DNA of 64,000 bases from an uncultured Chthonomonadaceae bacterium (GTDB taxonomy: Bacteria; Armatimonadota; Chthonomonadetes; Chthonomonadales; Chthonomonadaceae), in NCBI GenBank assembly GCA_963835065.1, contig CAWIEK010000033.1, positions 25,184-89,183 of the forward strand, written 5' to 3'. A model generated the notes under the pieces. The model saw nothing but the letters and a program-made list of their open reading frames with translations, was not told the DNA's origin and ran no database searches. How positions within the stretch are numbered: the stretch's first letter is position 1; each line of letters begins with the position of its first letter. Of this stretch, positions 1-57,096 are shown piece by piece. Position numbers and translations under genes: made by a program.

Positions 1-49
1 CTCTGTGTTCCCCCTCTGTGCCTCTGTGTCTCTAGCGAAGCGGGTGGTT
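1..49. repeat. CTCTGTG-type tandem array, right arm of an inverted-repeat cassette
   Basis: ctctgtg..ctctgtg cctctgtgtctctagc..gcgggtggtt, similar to 48881-48932. Confidence 0.65.
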
Positions 50-1151
50 ATTTTCTCTTTGTCTCGTTCGTTGGCAGGGCCGCGATTTGCAGCAGGCGCG
101 TGTCGAGCAGTTGGGCGACATCTATGGTGCGCGGCAGGTAGCCGGCTTCAAATTGCGCCTGCATGAACGCGGCGATGCTCGTCGGGTTGGGATCGGCGGT
201 GAAGTCGCACCGATGCCAGGCTTCGCGCAGGACGGCGGGTGACAAAGCTCTGCCGGTCAGCCGTTTTAATTCTTTGTTGGTGTCGGCCTGCGCTTCGTCG
301 GGATGCGTTTGCATCCAGGAAAGCGTTTGCAGGTGCGCGGTCAGGAGTTTCTGCACTTCCTGCGGGTGCTGTTCCAAATAGGCGCGGCGGGCGACGACTA
401 CGGTTGTCGTTACTTTGTGGTCGGGCCACAGGTCGCGCTCATCGAGTACCAGCATGGCGTGGGCGTCGGCAATCAGGCGGGCCGCCCAGGGTTCGGGAAC
501 CCAGGCCGCGTCCAGTTCGCCGCGCAGAAACAGGGTCAGCATGTCGGCGTTTTTCACGGGCAGGATTTGTACCGTGCCGCCCTTTTCGGTTCCGCGCAAG
601 CCTTGCAGCGCGAGAAAATGCCGCAGGGAAATGTCCTGTGTGCCGCCGATTTGCGGCACGGCCACGCGCTTGCCTTCCAAATCCCGCACACTGGTAACGT
701 TGGTTCCCTCGCGGGCAATCAGCGCCGCGCCCCCACTGCAAGCGCCGGCAATAATCTTCAGCGCGCGGCCATTGGACTTCAAAAACGTATTGACGGCAGG
801 GCCGGGGCCGACATAACTCACATCAATCTCACCCGCAAGCAGGGCTTCCATCGCTTCCGGCCCGGCATTGAACACTTTGGCGTCTAAGGCGATTTGACTG
901 CCCAACGCCTGCTGAAAAGTGCCGCGTCCCACGCCCAGCACGGCGGGCGCATGGGTGACATTGGCAAAATAGCCCAGCCGTACCCGCTCCGCGCCGGACA
1001 GCGGCACATCAGGCGGGCGTCCCACCACAAACGCCAGCAAAAACAGCGTCACGATGCCGAACAGGGGTACGGCATTTTGCCGCGTTGTCTGTATCCACTG
1101 GCTTGTTTGTGATTGTGGCTTTTGCCAATCGGTCATTAAGGAAATCCTCAA
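48..1151 (-). CDS. ABC transporter substrate-binding protein, aliphatic sulfonate/nitrate (SsuA/TauA-like)
   Basis: N-terminal TM, RLGYFANVTHAPA, FNAGPEAMEAL, GELDAAWVPEPW motifs typical of SsuA-like SBPs; overlaps Rrf2 stop; start could be 1136. Confidence 0.85.
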   Translation of the reverse strand: MRISLMTDWQKPQSQTSQWIQTTRQNAVPLFGIVTLFLLAFVVGRPPDVPLSGAERVRLGYFANVTHAPAVLGVGRGTFQQALGSQIALDAKVFNAGPEAMEALLAGEIDVSYVGPGPAVNTFLKSNGRALKIIAGACSGGAALIAREGTNVTSVRDLEGKRVAVPQIGGTQDISLRHFLALQGLRGTEKGGTVQILPVKNADMLTLFLRGELDAAWVPEPWAARLIADAHAMLVLDERDLWPDHKVTTTVVVARRAYLEQHPQEVQKLLTAHLQTLSWMQTHPDEAQADTNKELKRLTGRALSPAVLREAWHRCDFTADPNPTSIAAFMQAQFEAGYLPRTIDVAQLLDTRLLQIAALPTNETKRK

Positions 1152-1606
1152 ATCACATAATCAAAAAGTTCGTTTTGCTGCGCCTGCAAGGTTCCGTGCC
1201 GTTCGGCAAGCTGCGCGAACGTGGTGGTATCCAGCACTTTTGCCAGCGCGTCGCGGGCTTCCTTCCACGCGGTGCGCAGGCTGCACGTCAAAGGTTCGGG
1301 ACAGCCGCACTCGTTGTAATCGGATGTGCTGACGCAGCTCATGGGCGCGAGCGGCCCGTCGGTTGCCCGCACAACCGCGCCGAGCGTGATGGCAGCGGGC
1401 GGCATGGCAAGCAGATACCCGCCGCCCGGCCCTTTGCGGCTTTTCACAAACCCGAACCGTTTCAGCGTCAGCAGTATCTGCTCCAGAAACTTCACGGGGA
1501 TGTTCTGCCGCGCCGCGATCTCATGGATCAGCACGGGGCCTTGTCCGCTGTGAAGCGTCAGGTCAATCAAGGCGCGGGTCGCGTATTTTCCTCGGCAAGA
1601 TAGCAT
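1148..1606 (-). CDS. Rrf2 family transcriptional regulator (CymR/IscR-like)
   Basis: KYATRAL, EIAARQNIPVKFLEQIL, SRKGPGGGY motifs; three Cys (CVS..CGC..C) region. Confidence 0.92.
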   Translation of the reverse strand: MLSCRGKYATRALIDLTLHSGQGPVLIHEIAARQNIPVKFLEQILLTLKRFGFVKSRKGPGGGYLLAMPPAAITLGAVVRATDGPLAPMSCVSTSDYNECGCPEPLTCSLRTAWKEARDALAKVLDTTTFAQLAERHGTLQAQQNELFDYVI

Positions 1607-1765: not shown

Positions 1766-2496
1766 CTTCTCGCGCACCACAGGGCCGCGTTGTAAAGCAC
1801 CGTTTGCACGTTGGCGTCGAAGTATGTGGGGTACGTTTCATGGCCGGGGCGGAAGTAGAACACGCGCCCCGCTCCCTCGCCTTCTCCGATCCCCTTGCCC
1901 GGTCCCGACGTAAAGCCCTGTGTTTTGCCGCGCCCGACTGTCCAGCAGATGCCGCTTGGAAAGTATTCGCCGCCGAGGGGAAAATAGGATTGCAGCACGA
2001 GACATTGCGGCGGCGGCACGTCGAACGGAGCGCCGTACATCTCTTCTTCCGCCAGCACAAAATCGGACACGCCCTGCGCAATGGGGTGGTGAGGGGCGCA
2101 TACGGTGATTTCTTCGGTATCGGCGGGCGTTTGCTCACGCCAGCCGCCTTTGAGATGGCCGGGACAGGCGAGAACGGCCTGCAAGGTTTTGGAATAGTGC
2201 GCGGAGTGCAGGGCTACAAAGCCCATGCCCCGCTCGTGAACGTGTCCGTACACGCGCATCATCGTGTCGTCGCTGACTTCCCGATGCCGGGCATGCGCCC
2301 ACCAGAACAGCACGTCGGTCTGGTGTAAAATGTCGTCGCCGCAGCCCTGCTCCAGGTCGTCCAAATTGGCGGTTGTCGCCTTGATTTTGCCGTTCCCTTT
2401 GGCGTTCAAGCCAGCGGCAATCGCGCCGTTGATGCTGTCCGGGTACAGCGATTTCGGCGCATGGGTGGGCGCTTCATCCCACACCAGTACACGCAC
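1756..2496 (-). CDS. ThuA-like (trehalose utilisation, GATase-like fold) protein
   Basis: RVLVWDE, DVLFWWAH, GMGFVALHSAHYSK, EEEMYG, GRVFYFRPGHETYPTY. Confidence 0.88.
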   Translation of the reverse strand: MRVLVWDEAPTHAPKSLYPDSINGAIAAGLNAKGNGKIKATTANLDDLEQGCGDDILHQTDVLFWWAHARHREVSDDTMMRVYGHVHERGMGFVALHSAHYSKTLQAVLACPGHLKGGWREQTPADTEEITVCAPHHPIAQGVSDFVLAEEEMYGAPFDVPPPQCLVLQSYFPLGGEYFPSGICWTVGRGKTQGFTSGPGKGIGEGEGAGRVFYFRPGHETYPTYFDANVQTVLYNAALWCARREE

Positions 2497-2630
2497 AGGG
2501 GCTGGCGCTCGTCGTATTCTCTGCCATTCGATTTATATTCTCCTTTGCGTTCAAATGCGCTTTTCCTCAATCTCGCTGCAAGATTGCGCGTCCGCGAGTC
2601 AAAACCCTGCTTTGTTTTTGATTATTCAGG

Positions 2631-2673
2631 CCCTCACCCCCGCCCCTCTCCCAAAAAGCATGGGAGAGGGGCG
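2631..2673. repeat. CCCTCACCCC..CCCTCTCCC/GGGAGAGGG REP-like hairpin
   Basis: ccctcacccccgcccctctccc aaaaagcat gggagaggggcg. Confidence 0.6.
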
Positions 2674-2828
2674 CAGTGTTTTTGCAGGCGCAGCCCTGCC
2701 GCGCTGTAAAATTTCCCGGTTGTGGTAGCCGGAACTTGGATTGCGCGTCTTGTTTGCAGTGAAGCTGAGTTCATTGTGACGTTGAGTTCCCCGTGAAGCT
2801 GAAGAGCGCGTAAAAGAGAGGAGGTTCT

Positions 2829-3788
2829 ATGGACGGACTGTTTCATAATCCTGTGGCCGAGATGTATGGGCCGACGTTTCTCATGGTGTACGGTATGGTG
2901 ATTGTCGCCACGCTGATTTTGTGTTACCATGCCGCTCGGCGCGGAACGTCCGCAGGGAGTGGACCGCCGGAAGTGCCTTCGCGTCCTGACCCGTATGAGA
3001 TCGCGTATTTGCGCGGGGGTGAGAACGAGGTGATACGGCTGGCGATATTCCGCCTGATGCAGTCCGGCTATTTGCAGGCCGAAGGCGACAAGGTGAAAAA
3101 ACTGCGCAGCACGGGTCTGGCCTACCCCGCCGGTAGCCTGTCTTCCCGCGAATCTCAGATCGAAACGGAAACCCTGTCGTACTTTGCCATGCCGCGCGGC
3201 GTGGGCGAAGTGTTCACCTCCTCCCTGCTCGGGCATGTCCGGCGGTTGTGTTCCGATTATGAGGAGCGGCTGCGCTGGCAAGGGCTGCTCAACGGGGATG
3301 AGGCTGCCGAACATGCCCGCCACGCTTTTCAAGTGGGCGCAGTGGTGATTTACGGCCTGGGCGGGTACAAGCTGATGGCGGCGGTCAACAACGGTTATTA
3401 CAACATCGGCTTTCTGATTGTCATGGGACTGTTCGCGCTTCCCTGCCTGGCAGGGGTGTGCCGCCTGCCCCGCCTGAGCGAGTTGGGGAAGCAGTACGTG
3501 CAGCGACTGCAAGCCGCGTTCGGCGGGCTGAGGTCGCGCCTGCCGAATGAGGAGACGGGCGATGATTCGGTTCCGCTCGTCCTCGCCGTCTTCGGCGTGG
3601 GAGCATTGGCGGCTACCGCTTACACCGATTTTCACCTGATGTTTCAGCGCGCCGCCAATGCCGGAACGAGCGGCGGGGGCTGCGGGGGCATGAGCAGTTG
3701 TGGCAGTGGCGGAGGCTGCGGCGGGGGCGGGGGTTGTGGGGGCGGGGGTGGTTGTGGCGGTGGGTGCGGCGGTTGCGGAGGAGGGTAA
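2829..3788 (+). CDS. TIGR04222-domain membrane protein with Gly/Cys-rich C-terminal tail
   Basis: RBS gaggagg; GPTFL..Y, DPYEIAYLRGG motif, TM segments, tail GGGCGGMSSCGSGGGCGGGGGCGGGGGCGGGCGGCGGG. Confidence 0.88.
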   Translation: MDGLFHNPVAEMYGPTFLMVYGMVIVATLILCYHAARRGTSAGSGPPEVPSRPDPYEIAYLRGGENEVIRLAIFRLMQSGYLQAEGDKVKKLRSTGLAYPAGSLSSRESQIETETLSYFAMPRGVGEVFTSSLLGHVRRLCSDYEERLRWQGLLNGDEAAEHARHAFQVGAVVIYGLGGYKLMAAVNNGYYNIGFLIVMGLFALPCLAGVCRLPRLSELGKQYVQRLQAAFGGLRSRLPNEETGDDSVPLVLAVFGVGALAATAYTDFHLMFQRAANAGTSGGGCGGMSSCGSGGGCGGGGGCGGGGGCGGGCGGCGGG

Positions 3789-3794
3789 TACATC

Positions 3795-4673
3795 ATGGCG
3801 CAAACAACATCCGGGATCGCATCGAATTCTTTTTCATCTTTTTCAATGGAAGCGTTGCCGGTTTTGGGCATCGGGCTGGGGATGCGCGAGCCGTTTCTGA
3901 GCGACCTGTTTTTGCACCGGCAGGACGTAGACTTTTTGGAAATCGTTGCCGACCACTATTTCGATCCCACACCGCGCAAAGCGGAGGAATTGGAACTGCT
4001 GCGGGCGCATTTCCCGCTTGTGCCGCACGGCCTGGATTTGTCGCTCGGCAGCGCGGAAGGCTTGGATATGGCGTATTTGGAGCGGATGGCAAAATTGGTG
4101 AACCATCTTAACCCGCCCTGGTGGAGCGAGCATATCGCGTTTACCAGAGCCGGAAGCGTGGACATCGGGCATTTGTGCGGCCTGCCGTTCACCCGTGACG
4201 CGCTGGATACCTTGTGCGGCAACATCCGCCGCGTACAGGAACGGATTGCCGCGCCGTTGATTTTGGAAAACATCACGTACACGCTGCAATGGCCGGGCGC
4301 GGAAATGACCGAAGCGCAGTTTCTAACCGAACTGGTCACGCGCGCGGATTGCGGACTGCTGCTGGACATTACGAACCTGTACACGAACTCGGTAAATTGG
4401 GGTTACGACCCGTGCCGGTTTCTGGACGAATTGCCGCTTGAAAAAGTGGTACAGTTCCATTTCGTCGGGGGCGAGTGGCAGGGCGATCAGTTGATTGACA
4501 GCCATTCGCAGTCCACGCCGCCGGAAGTATGGCAGCTTATGGAAGAAGCCTGCCGTCGTACTCAGGTAAAAGGCATTTTGCTGGAGCGGGACGAAAATCT
4601 GCCGCCGTTCAAAGAAATCACCGAAGAACTGGCGAAGGCGCGGGAGATAATGCGGTTGAGGGTTGAGGGTTGA
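3795..4673 (+). CDS. DUF692 family multinuclear non-heme iron oxidative enzyme (MNIO)
   Basis: GIGLGMR, DFLEIVADHY, HGLDLSLGS, WWSEHIAF, LENIT, LLLDITNLY, IDSHS, LERD; start may be 3846. Confidence 0.93.
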   Translation: MAQTTSGIASNSFSSFSMEALPVLGIGLGMREPFLSDLFLHRQDVDFLEIVADHYFDPTPRKAEELELLRAHFPLVPHGLDLSLGSAEGLDMAYLERMAKLVNHLNPPWWSEHIAFTRAGSVDIGHLCGLPFTRDALDTLCGNIRRVQERIAAPLILENITYTLQWPGAEMTEAQFLTELVTRADCGLLLDITNLYTNSVNWGYDPCRFLDELPLEKVVQFHFVGGEWQGDQLIDSHSQSTPPEVWQLMEEACRRTQVKGILLERDENLPPFKEITEELAKAREIMRLRVEG

Positions 4674-4775
4674 GAGTATTGGGTGTTCGGTGTTCGGTGT
4701 TCGGTATTTGGGTATTTGGTGTTGGGGGAGTGGCATTGTCTTAAATGCTCAATGCTTCATGCTCAACGCTCAATC
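4653..4775. repeat. Mixed heptamer arrays (GGTTGAG, GTGTTCG/GTATTTG, AATGCTC)
   Basis: Tandem 7-mers directly visible between the DUF692 gene and the next gene. Confidence 0.8.
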
Positions 4776-4787
4776 GAAGGATGAGAA

Positions 4788-5429
4788 ATGGGATTACGGG
4801 ACGTGCAGCATGGGCTGGCGCGGCTGCTGACGGATGATGGTCTGCGGGAACGGTTTGCGGTTGACCCGCAGGGCGTGGCGCAAACGCTGAATCTGGATGC
4901 GGCGGATGCGGCGCAGTTGTCCCTTCTGGCAAGCGCGGAAGTGGAGCGCTTTGCCCGTTCGCTGCGCGCCAAGCGGTGGAACGAAATTCAGAAGTTGCTG
5001 CCGGTTTCCACGCAGGCGGCGCAAAATTTCGGGTTTCCGTTGCGGCGGTTGTTCTTCGATTTCGCGCAAACGTATGCGCCACAGGGCGGCAAGCGCCATA
5101 CGCAGGACGCCCTTGCTTTCGCCGATTGGACAGCGCGGCAGTCGAGCGGAACGCCGCAAGATTTCATTCCCACAAACGCGGTATGGCTTTCCGACTTACT
5201 GCGCTATGAAGCGGCGTGGCTGGAAATGCATCTGCTGCCGTCACGACGCTGGATGCTGCGCCGGTTCGCCTACCCTATTCCCCAATGGATACGCGCCCAA
5301 ACGCTTGCTGCCGCCGAAGGTAAAGTTACCGACAGTTCCCCATCTATGCGAACAACTCTGAGCATATGGCTGCGCCTGTCACCTTCGGGTAAGCTGCGCC
5401 ATTACAATTTGTCTGCGCCCAAACTATGA
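4788..5429 (+). CDS. Putative MNIO partner/peptide-recognition protein (DUF2063/SCO6045-like)
   Basis: Follows DUF692; LARLLTD..LRERF, FARSLRAKR, DALAF and DLLRYEAAWLE resemble MNIO partner proteins. Confidence 0.65.
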   Translation: MGLRDVQHGLARLLTDDGLRERFAVDPQGVAQTLNLDAADAAQLSLLASAEVERFARSLRAKRWNEIQKLLPVSTQAAQNFGFPLRRLFFDFAQTYAPQGGKRHTQDALAFADWTARQSSGTPQDFIPTNAVWLSDLLRYEAAWLEMHLLPSRRWMLRRFAYPIPQWIRAQTLAAAEGKVTDSSPSMRTTLSIWLRLSPSGKLRHYNLSAPKL

Positions 5430-5471
5430 CAAGCGGGCAGAGAAAGCGAGGCGAAAACACCATCTTGTACG

Positions 5472-6266
5472 CTACTTCCCGTCCTTTCGCAGCAGCGCCA
5501 CAAAGTCAGGACGTTTCTGTTCGCGCGCCAGGGAAAGCGGGGTTTCCGCGTTGACGTTGCGAAGGTTGGGGTTGGCTCCGCGCGCCATCAATTCCTGCAC
5601 CAAACGCTTGCTTTTGCCGTTCCAAATCGCAAAATGCAGGGCTGTGTTGCCGTCGCGGTTCTGGATGTTCACATTGGCATGGCGCGTCAGCAGCAAGCGC
5701 GTCATGGCTTCAGCATTGGCAGCCGCGGCCACCATCAGCGAAGTGGAGCCGTTCGTACCCTGCGTGTCCACGTTTGCGCCATGCGCAAGCAGCAGTTCTA
5801 TGAGACACAGGCGGTTCCGATTGACAGCGGCGCGTATAGGCGTATCGTCATCGGATTGCGGGGCGTTGAGGTCTGCGCCATGCGTAAGCATGGTTTCGGC
5901 CAATTGACAGCAGCCTGCGTCATCGGCAAGCGCCGGTATGCCGGCATCGTCTGTCCATTGCAAGCCTCCCCCACAGGCAAGCAAAAACGCGGTCGGGCTG
6001 TCATCGGCAGGGGCAAGCGAGCGGTGCAGCAGTTGGTCGAGCAGCCGCTTGAAGGTTGGGGCAGGCGGCGGATGGCAGCGCGTATTCGGGTCGGCTCCGG
6101 CATGGACAAGGACAAGCGCCTGCCTGCTGTCGTTGTGGACAAGAGCGGCAATCAGTTGACGATTAAGCGTGTACTGCCGATTCGCCTTCCATACCCACCA
6201 TCCGCTTGAGCCGACGATCACGAGAACAGGCGTCAGCGCCAAAACTAACGAACGTCGCGCTTTCAT
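5472..6266 (-). CDS. Ankyrin repeat protein with N-terminal membrane anchor
   Basis: GADPN, GANVD, GSTSLMVAA, GNTALHFA, GANPN..ETPL repeats. Confidence 0.9.
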   Translation of the reverse strand: MKARRSLVLALTPVLVIVGSSGWWVWKANRQYTLNRQLIAALVHNDSRQALVLVHAGADPNTRCHPPPAPTFKRLLDQLLHRSLAPADDSPTAFLLACGGGLQWTDDAGIPALADDAGCCQLAETMLTHGADLNAPQSDDDTPIRAAVNRNRLCLIELLLAHGANVDTQGTNGSTSLMVAAAANAEAMTRLLLTRHANVNIQNRDGNTALHFAIWNGKSKRLVQELMARGANPNLRNVNAETPLSLAREQKRPDFVALLRKDGK

Positions 6267-56979: not shown

Positions 56980-57096
56980 CTTGACGTATGTATATGCAAA
57001 AACGGTATATCTATCCGGTGTAAATGGTAGTTTTACCGCCCCTGTTTTCTTGAGTCTGCCGTCGTATCTGCGCCTTTGTGTCGGGTAAACTAAAAA

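Follow-up and report, generated by a model that had tools for sequence, protein, structure and literature searches.

Which substrate does an MNIO-family enzyme (DUF692/PF05114) act on when no small precursor peptide is encoded beside it? This question is raised by a three-gene run in a 64,000-nucleotide stretch of DNA, which will be referred to as the window, from an uncultured Chthonomonadaceae bacterium (GenBank assembly GCA_963835065.1, contig CAWIEK010000033.1, positions 25,184 to 89,183). All three genes are located on the plus strand and encode a TIGR04222 membrane protein of 319 amino acids (2829-3788) ending in a Gly/Ser/Cys-rich tail, an MNIO of 292 amino acids (3795-4673; alternative start possible at 3846) and a partner protein of 213 amino acids (4788-5429), with a gap of 6 nucleotides between the first two genes. 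A first-pass annotation of the window had described this arrangement, which the open reading frames bear out, and had proposed that the membrane-tethered protein is itself the precursor and its tail the substrate of the MNIO. Gene-context comparisons and the predicted topology agree with this proposal, which is already in print, and on balance we favour the reading that the MNIO and its partner turn the tail cysteines into 5-thiooxazoles at the inner face of the membrane.

The Membrane Protein and Its Tail

The 319-residue protein matches the TIGR04222 profile with 100.7 bits (cut-off 43) and carries the low-complexity Gly/Ser C-terminus interspersed with Cys that is a trait of this family. 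The tail comprises residues 282-319 (3672-3788, plus strand) with seven cysteines, exactly as first annotated, at positions 285, 291, 297, 303, 309, 313 and 316, and ends with C313-G-G-C316-GGG. In an alignment of 110 homologues (ten out of 120 listed were left out as truncated, frameshifted or fused), CGGC was present within the last 14 residues of 106, which argues that the tail is not due to chance. C313-G-G-C316 forms invariant columns, and C313 and C316 are the only invariant cysteines, the number of Cys upstream of the terminal CGGC ranging from 4 to 10. Among the residues counted directly after a tail Cys, Gly occurs 572 times and Ser 60 times, and Lys or Arg occurs inside the last 30 residues of merely 7/110 homologues. 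The 8.0-Mb genome (92% complete) contains one copy each of TIGR04222 and PF05114; among 17 stop-to-stop frames retained genome-wide by a loose filter for Gly/Ser/Cys-rich ends, only the 319-residue protein ends in a CGGC-G tail.

Variants of this gene were seen elsewhere. Tandem TIGR04222 paralogues, both tailed and served by a single common maturase gene, are present at L032, L033, L042, L083, L088, L151 and L171, and a second copy without a tail at L019 and L057. DUF2207-like membrane proteins at L025 (529-2418) and L026 (318-2120; no Pfam match) carry another kind of Cys-rich tail on a scaffold related to this one, (A)CHSAC(V)HS repeated in tandem. An apparent TIGR04222-MNIO fusion (P0109), whose tail continues out of frame into the start of the MNIO, was taken as a frameshift artefact.

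A Slot Filled by Mutually Exclusive Partners

Sixty-one GTDB loci were gathered with one peptide pattern. An MNIO adjoins the TIGR04222 gene at 42 of them, so the neighbourhood named as a check in the first-pass annotation is indeed conserved; a SPASM radical S-adenosylmethionine (SAM) enzyme was found at five and a His-rich domain at four, seven loci were cut by contig ends and three had none of these. Two partner types were never found together (0/61). In one of the three partnerless cases (L050), a same-clade MNIO-partner pair lies elsewhere in the genome, in 12 kb that contain no tail gene, an arrangement that would fit action in trans.

Exclusivity was also observed in a sample of 301 genomes of the phylum of the window. 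Twenty-three were above the TIGR04222 cut-off, each with exactly one partner type: MNIO plus partner adjacent in seven, a radical SAM enzyme adjacent in three, and a His-rich PF27765 domain fused or adjacent in 13. When whole genomes were searched, none of the 16 without this MNIO type gave a full-length MNIO (one partial match of 28.8 bits) and no member of the tail-linked radical SAM clade at E ≤ 1e-30 in the 20 genomes assigned to other partners; the genome-wide search for the His-rich domain covered G000 only. Weak, partial PF05114 matches (29-76 bits) in this sample were not counted as this MNIO type. Of its nine strong MNIO matches, seven follow a TIGR04222 gene, one (L186) lacks a tail gene inside 1.5 kb, and one (L183) directly follows a gene (2399-3640, minus strand; genome G086) whose product has neither a Pfam nor a TIGR04222 match yet ends in a Gly/Ser/Cys tail, the same-clade MNIO being followed by a partner gene. 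What is shared is the tail rather than the membrane domain.

The picture was comparable at metagenome loci from the radical SAM clade: a TIGR04222 gene or another open reading frame ending in such a tail was present at 52 out of 80 and neither at the remaining 28, many of which are short contigs, while an MNIO or His-rich domain was found at none (0/80). Two further phyla, neither of them Actinomycetota, home of most TIGR04222 proteins, were also sampled (36 loci, of which two are seeded centre genomes and two are cut); here a partner was located within about 1.5 kb of 25/26 complete genes with a terminal CxxC and of 2/8 genes lacking it (Fisher P 1.4e-4, a value overstated since kin are not independent). 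Finally, a quick tree was made from 97 TIGR04222 proteins without their tails, omitting rows that were partnerless, short or duplicates; along it the label for the partner switches 10 times, and well-supported branches force at least three changes each for MNIO and radical SAM. The tail behaves as a portable C-terminal tag that several unrelated maturases can each serve.

Small or unrelated membrane proteins with GGCGGCGG-type tails and no clear TIGR04222 domain adjoin tail-linked radical SAM genes at L152 (924-1115), L153 (244-408), L128, L162 and L126. An MNIO frame with a SAM-methyltransferase-like N-terminal part, followed by a possible partner gene, was found at L246 (5603-7018, minus strand), far from the TIGR04222 genes of its genome (G304).

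The MNIO and Its Partner Protein

The identification of the enzyme as a DUF692 protein stands: it scores 302.5 bits on PF05114 (cut-off 25) over profile positions 1-262 of 263, and nothing resembling a signal peptide was found at its start. H78, H113, E158, D191, N194, H222, D235, H237, E264 and D266 are present and invariant in 44/44 aligned clade members, and in an alignment with 3BWW, TglH and MbnB nine conserved positions match TglH/3BWW. We take the conserved His, Asp, Glu and Asn to be the iron ligands of this family; the N/D/H of site 3 was mapped by motif to HvfB N175, D242 and H244. The best NCBIfam matches are BufB (245.7 bits, cut-off 310) and HvfB (217.5 bits, cut-off 360), enzymes that install 5-thiooxazoles (PMC12452194; PMC13097082; 10.64898/2026.07.17.739211). 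The invariant Asp of the ERD motif (D266) corresponds to FonB Asp249 when mapped by motif, without aligning FonB itself; this Asp is the proposed base of FonB, and its Ala variant is reported to be inactive. A complex prediction with MNIO, partner, residues 240-319 of the membrane protein and three Fe reached a score of 0.03 (mark 0.32) and counts neither for nor against the proposal.

A homologue of the partner is encoded downstream of the MNIO at 38/42 MNIO-type loci. The partner itself has no Pfam match at E ≤ 0.05, PF09836 included, and a weak NF038399 match; with regard to the structural kinship with NGO1945/TglI that marks PME-type 2 partners, one homologue matches NGO1945_C weakly (E 0.0027). 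PDB sequence searches with the partner profile gave nothing significant, and its single-sequence model was poor (pLDDT 41.7) and not taken to a fold search. Its language-model look-alikes (Atlas) include PF26136 SCO6045_C (0.91) and, as leads only, PF27805 MbnC-like (0.84) and PF09836 DUF2063 (0.83); SCO6045 appears in the literature searched as a single row of an expression table. We regard the partner as a predicted DUF2063/MbnC-like helical protein with an NHLP/LigA-like N-terminal hairpin and no full RiPP (peptide made by the ribosome and then modified posttranslationally) recognition element detected, that is, as PME-type-2-like; the co-location and the look-alikes would agree with a PME-type 2 identity.

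Substitute Enzymes and the Likely Chemistry

What the substitutes do bears on the product. The common tail-linked radical SAM enzymes score about 115-155 bits on TIGR04082 SbtM (cut-off 350), at times higher on TIGR04340, and form a clade of their own, and were therefore rejected as SbtM. At one locus (L214, 1417-3443, identical to L248; G490:C10), a nucleotidyltransferase-like gene and a TIGR04222 tail gene are followed by a genuine SbtM-family enzyme, which reaches 458.4 bits although it covers profile positions 198-516 only, the first ~196 positions being missing, and nests within the SbtM clade, a branch supported at 100% by SH-aLRT. It is the only SbtM-family match in the 301 genomes of its phylum sample; at 22 full-length SbtM loci of another phylum, no TIGR04222 gene was found within about 1.5 kb. 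SbtM takes four hydrogens off Cys to give a thiooxazole (PMC11002830). The main reason for predicting a 5-thiooxazole is therefore that two unrelated families with the same characterised product meet on the same tail, a convergence that rests on one locus and on sub-cut-off similarity. Taken together, we consider this product likely.

The His-rich domain matches clusters of PF27765, UCP032817-like (0.96), and contains an invariant D-x-x-W-H-x-H-L motif plus one further His in 16/16 aligned copies. Tails accompanied by it are shorter, with a mean of 3.7 Cys (n = 12) compared to 6.6 for MNIO-linked tails (n = 46). From its position in the slot we infer that it is a putative maturase. Neither UCP032817 nor PF27765 was found in the literature searched (which did not cover subscription papers), and tblastn gave no match for the domain in the genome of the window. 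In the long forms (L003-L012, L014, L015; frames of 483-617 residues), a PF27765-like domain precedes TIGR04222 via an internal signal-like segment; 8/12 of them have a lipobox Cys, so that cleavage might release the PF27765-like domain and leave the remainder anchored by a lipid.

Predicted Membrane Topology

Three transmembrane (TM) helices are predicted in the TIGR04222 protein at about residues 14-37, 164-188 and 194-210. The AlphaFold2 model (110 sequences; pLDDT 86.8) contains long helices at 14-37, 157-188 and 194-210 and a 9-residue helix at 247-255, followed by a disordered tail (<50), and residues ~52-155 and ~215-277 form a single soluble domain. Structure comparison places the three long helices in one bundle, the top Z-scores being generic three-helix bundles, and matches residues 52-277, taken as a single domain, to GOLPH3, albeit weakly (Z 7.3, rmsd 6.4, 166 residues). 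Foldseek likewise returned GOLPH3/Vps74 in its top three rows at E 0.16-0.37 and nothing at E ≤ 0.001, and a PDB sequence search with the TIGR04222 profile gave no significant match. Since the helices form one bundle and residues 52-277 one domain, domain and tail lie on the same side.

This side is very probably the cytoplasm. The mean number of Lys plus Arg flanking the domain and tail is 8.7 compared to 1.3 on the other side, and is higher in 110/110 homologues; the N-terminus ahead of TM1 is nearly free of them (0.14). In the long forms a lipobox directly precedes TM1 in 8/12 and a hydrophobic signal-like stretch in the other four, which places the N-terminal end of TM1 outside. Finally, HHalign matches the TIGR04222 region (97.1%, E 7e-11; alignment of three sequences) with the part of DUF2207 proteins that comes after an N-terminal domain and one TM helix. 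The first-pass annotation had named a tail away from the cytoplasmic enzyme as an outcome that would speak against it; the predicted topology puts the tail on the side of the enzyme.

Proposed Mechanism

We propose that the TIGR04222 protein inserts with its N-terminus outside and three helices in the membrane, leaving the Gly/Cys tail to hang in the cytoplasm. There the MNIO and its partner would oxidise the tail cysteines with O2, likely Cys by Cys, most likely to 5-thiooxazoles (−4 Da each). That the tail is the substrate of the MNIO is, in our view, well founded on gene context. The modified tail would stay tethered and not be released, because no protease or exporter is recognisable among the recurrent neighbour clusters. 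Its purpose might be that of an array which buffers or senses soft metal (Cu(I)) at the inner face of the membrane, a tentative suggestion made because thiooxazole peptides bind copper in bufferins and captophorins; it is our leading guess on purpose and the least supported step.

A bolder version, which we consider rather doubtful, would have the tail converted to the same thiooxazole array by the MNIO, the SPASM radical SAM clade, the SbtM-family enzyme or the PF27765/GRDP-like domain, the MNIO being O2-dependent and the SPASM clade O2-independent, and the tag residing in the cytoplasm on full-length proteins. The PF27765/GRDP-like domain would then be an undescribed metalloenzyme that modifies the Cys of its own tail, and the plant proteins GRDP1/2 would share this chemistry.

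Alternatives

Several observations weigh against the thiooxazole proposal, most of them concerning the product. The MNIO lies below the BufB and HvfB cut-offs and indeed below that of every curated MNIO subfamily, including ApyH (119.2 bits, cut-off 400), ChrH (61.2, cut-off 600) and MbnB (43.2, cut-off 325), TglH having no curated model among the NCBIfam matches; the partner is PME-type-2-like instead of PME-type 1, and MbnB shares the ERD Asp. For these reasons the product is not fixed. In addition, the SbtM link was seen at 1/23 SbtM-family loci examined, and the main radical SAM substitute is separate from SbtM; thioether cross-links are a frequent product of SPASM enzymes. The tail might thus be the substrate for another outcome, namely, an oxazolone-thioamide, loss of a carbon by excision, or a ring or cross-link restricted to the terminal CGGC, in line with the invariance of C313 and C316 beside an upstream Cys number that varies from 4 to 10. 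Nevertheless, the BufB/HvfB scores far exceed those of ApyH, ChrH and MbnB, TglH has LEY at the position of ERD and the tail does not end in Cys, and an SbtM-family enzyme was found once in the same slot. We consider a different product unlikely.

That the tail serves unmodified as a CxxC or poly-Cys metal or redox site, while the enzyme acts elsewhere or merely loads or protects it, would agree with the 13 genomes that keep the tail with neither full-length MNIO nor radical SAM found and with a His-rich PF27765 domain of no shown activity. The DUF2207 relatives have a Cys-free Gly/Ser tail; therefore, the tail is older than any Cys chemistry. This explanation is nonetheless improbable to us: MNIO, SPASM clade and SbtM, known or likely Cys modifiers, share the slot and never occur together in one locus, CxxC loss accompanies partner loss (6/8), and the surroundings of the operon yielded no other candidate substrate.

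A periplasmic domain and tail, modified before or during insertion and then acting outside like a tethered bufferin or clipped by a housekeeping protease, would agree with the periplasmic tails predicted for TIGR04222 proteins in PMC12452194, with the exported copper binders bufferin and oxazolin, and with a borderline fourth hydrophobic stretch (mean Kyte-Doolittle value 1.61; ≥1.6 in 62/110 homologues), for which hydropathy alone leaves room as a fourth TM helix, but this is hard to reconcile with the positive-inside bias in all homologues and the nearly Lys/Arg-free N-terminus, the segment directly ahead of TM1 in the long forms, the position of the homologous DUF2207 region after an exported domain and one TM helix, the AlphaFold placement of the fourth stretch as the 9-residue helix within the soluble domain, and recurrent neighbours among which no protease is recognisable.

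Further points weigh on the proposal as a whole. In addition to the 13 genomes with a tail and neither enzyme found, a CxxC tail at L211 lacks a partner on its 3.8-kb contig, and PMC12452194 counts 490/1372 TIGR04222 genomes without an MNIO. The loci are not independent, many being from Pyrinomonadaceae and 61 having been chosen by one peptide pattern, and the literature searched contained no experimental study of TIGR04222-MNIO-PME-type 2 clusters. The copper role is unsupported by gene context, as no metal-stress gene is recognisable among the recurrent neighbours. The metal (Cu) or redox array of the first-pass annotation accordingly has the standing of an analogy, copper-resistance, DoxX, sigma/anti-sigma and other regulator genes also not being recognisable in the recurrent neighbour clusters.

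Genomic Context of the Operon

The TIGR04222 gene start is preceded by a Shine-Dalgarno-like GGAGG. Between the MNIO and partner genes lies a spacer of 114 nucleotides (4674-4787) made up partly of short repeats that are common genome-wide, two of its motifs occurring in 60 and 80 copies; it has no terminator-like site on the plus strand and plays no part in the mechanism. At window positions 4655-4760 and 2631-2675, such short-repeat spacers, typical of the host genome, were noted together with a hairpin of 13 bp, rich in G+C, which lies upstream of the operon. The stretch 2450-5600 gave no sigma-70-like promoter, its terminator-like sites were no more frequent than expected by chance, and no RNA holder is listed for the three genes.

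Upstream lie divergent genes for a ThuA-like protein, an Rrf2 regulator and a sulfonate-binding protein, and downstream convergent genes for an ankyrin protein, a hypothetical protein and a DHDPS-family enzyme. These neighbours, on the opposite strand, are unrelated to the operon; they include neither a protease nor an exporter, and none of the small open reading frames listed around the operon is precursor-like, as first noted. The Rrf2/CymR-like regulator and the sulfonate ABC substrate-binding protein (48-1606, minus strand) were unseen at related loci. A functional tie to them was rejected: the flanking proteins of the window are absent from the recurrent neighbour clusters printed, and a same-genus genome (G261) contains neither TIGR04222 nor MNIO. 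The cassette is patchy, with a TIGR04222 match in 3/17 same-family genomes and none in the same-genus genome. Elsewhere in the same genome (C2, minus strand near 57092), a Cys/Gly/Tyr/Ala-rich stop-to-stop frame of 50 residues may be an unrelated RiPP-like peptide or chance.

The neighbours that recurred at related loci comprise lineage-specific genes and, at 5 loci, a nucleotidyltransferase-like gene. The latter, of the polymerase-beta type, lies directly upstream of the TIGR04222 gene at L038 (5247-5987), L080, L085, L091 and L092, occurs in MNIO and radical SAM loci alike, and is fused to TIGR04222 in P0058. In Pyrinomonadaceae-type operons (L045, L046, L051, L053, L063-L071, L084), extra genes for zinc-ribbon membrane proteins, an HbpS-like protein or a methyltransferase are inserted without breaking the operon.

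Relation to Known Systems

The class to which the locus belongs, as an ordinary member, was put forward in 2025 from computational analysis (Antoine et al., Microb Genom; PMC12452194); in it, TIGR04222 proteins are proposed as MNIO substrates with PME-type 2 partners, their modification and role being left for investigation. The class has the same gene order (TIGR04222, MNIO, partner without DUF2063 signature), a C-proximal Cys-rich segment of a membrane protein as substrate and an MNIO close to the bufferin enzymes, but that paper puts the tail in the periplasm, where we predict it to be cytoplasmic. TIGR04222 is mentioned once in passing in PMC5183585. As the first-pass annotation had stated, no established chemistry for this type was found in the literature searched, nor did we find the topology correction or the pattern of swappable partners in print there.

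The closest characterised MNIO families by score are those of bufferins, oxazolin and fontiphorin (captophorins; BufBC, HvfBC, FonBC), which have multi-Cys substrates in common with the window and whose metal-site and ERD residues are kept in its MNIO. Captophorin substrates carry Sec signal peptides and Lys-Cys/Cys-Lys or DUF2282 motifs, whereas the candidate in the window is an integral membrane protein whose Gly/Ser tail is free of Lys; their partners are PME-type 1 (DUF2063 plus RiPP recognition element), often accompanied by DoxX and regulators, whereas the window partner has no DUF2063 signature. In sum, the window lacks BufB/HvfB scores above cut-off, a DUF2063 partner and a small Sec-signal precursor, its candidate being a 319-residue protein with three TM helices. 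Assignment to methanobactin (MbnBC), pearlin (TglHI) or chryseobasin (ChrHI) does not fit either, MbnB and ChrH being below cut-off, the ERD position differing from TglH and no small precursor being present.

SbtM (TIGR04082) shares the conversion of Cys to thiooxazole (−4 H), with one family member behind a TIGR04222 tail gene, but is another enzyme class and absent from the window; open reading frames resembling precursors next to some SbtM genes contain Ser-Cys-Gly repeats. DUF2207 proteins (PF20990) have the homologous membrane and soluble core (HHalign 97%) and a Gly/Ser-rich C-terminus, and differ in a large exported N-terminal domain and a Cys-free tail ending in Trp. The weak likeness of the soluble domain to GOLPH3/Vps74 (GPP34; Foldseek E 0.16, Z 7.3) implies no function. 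In plants, AtGRDP2 links DUF1399 (PF07173) to a C-terminal [CG]GGGCGG[GC] region, and the accessible text of PMC4299439 reports no enzyme activity for GRDP proteins; the PF27765-PF07173 link is a single Atlas row at 0.80, and PF27765 was not found in the genome of the window.

Whether and how the more than 3,500 known TIGR04222 proteins are modified is left open in PMC12452194. If true, the cytoplasmic location would remove the puzzle of a cytoplasmic enzyme acting on a periplasmic substrate, and the system would represent RiPP-type heterocycle chemistry carried out in place on an integral membrane protein, with neither export nor removal of a leader. From the way in which partners replace one another exclusively, a function can be predicted for the tail-linked SPASM clade and the PF27765/GRDP-like domains, both of them uncharacterised families, and one cheap assay would serve all partner types.

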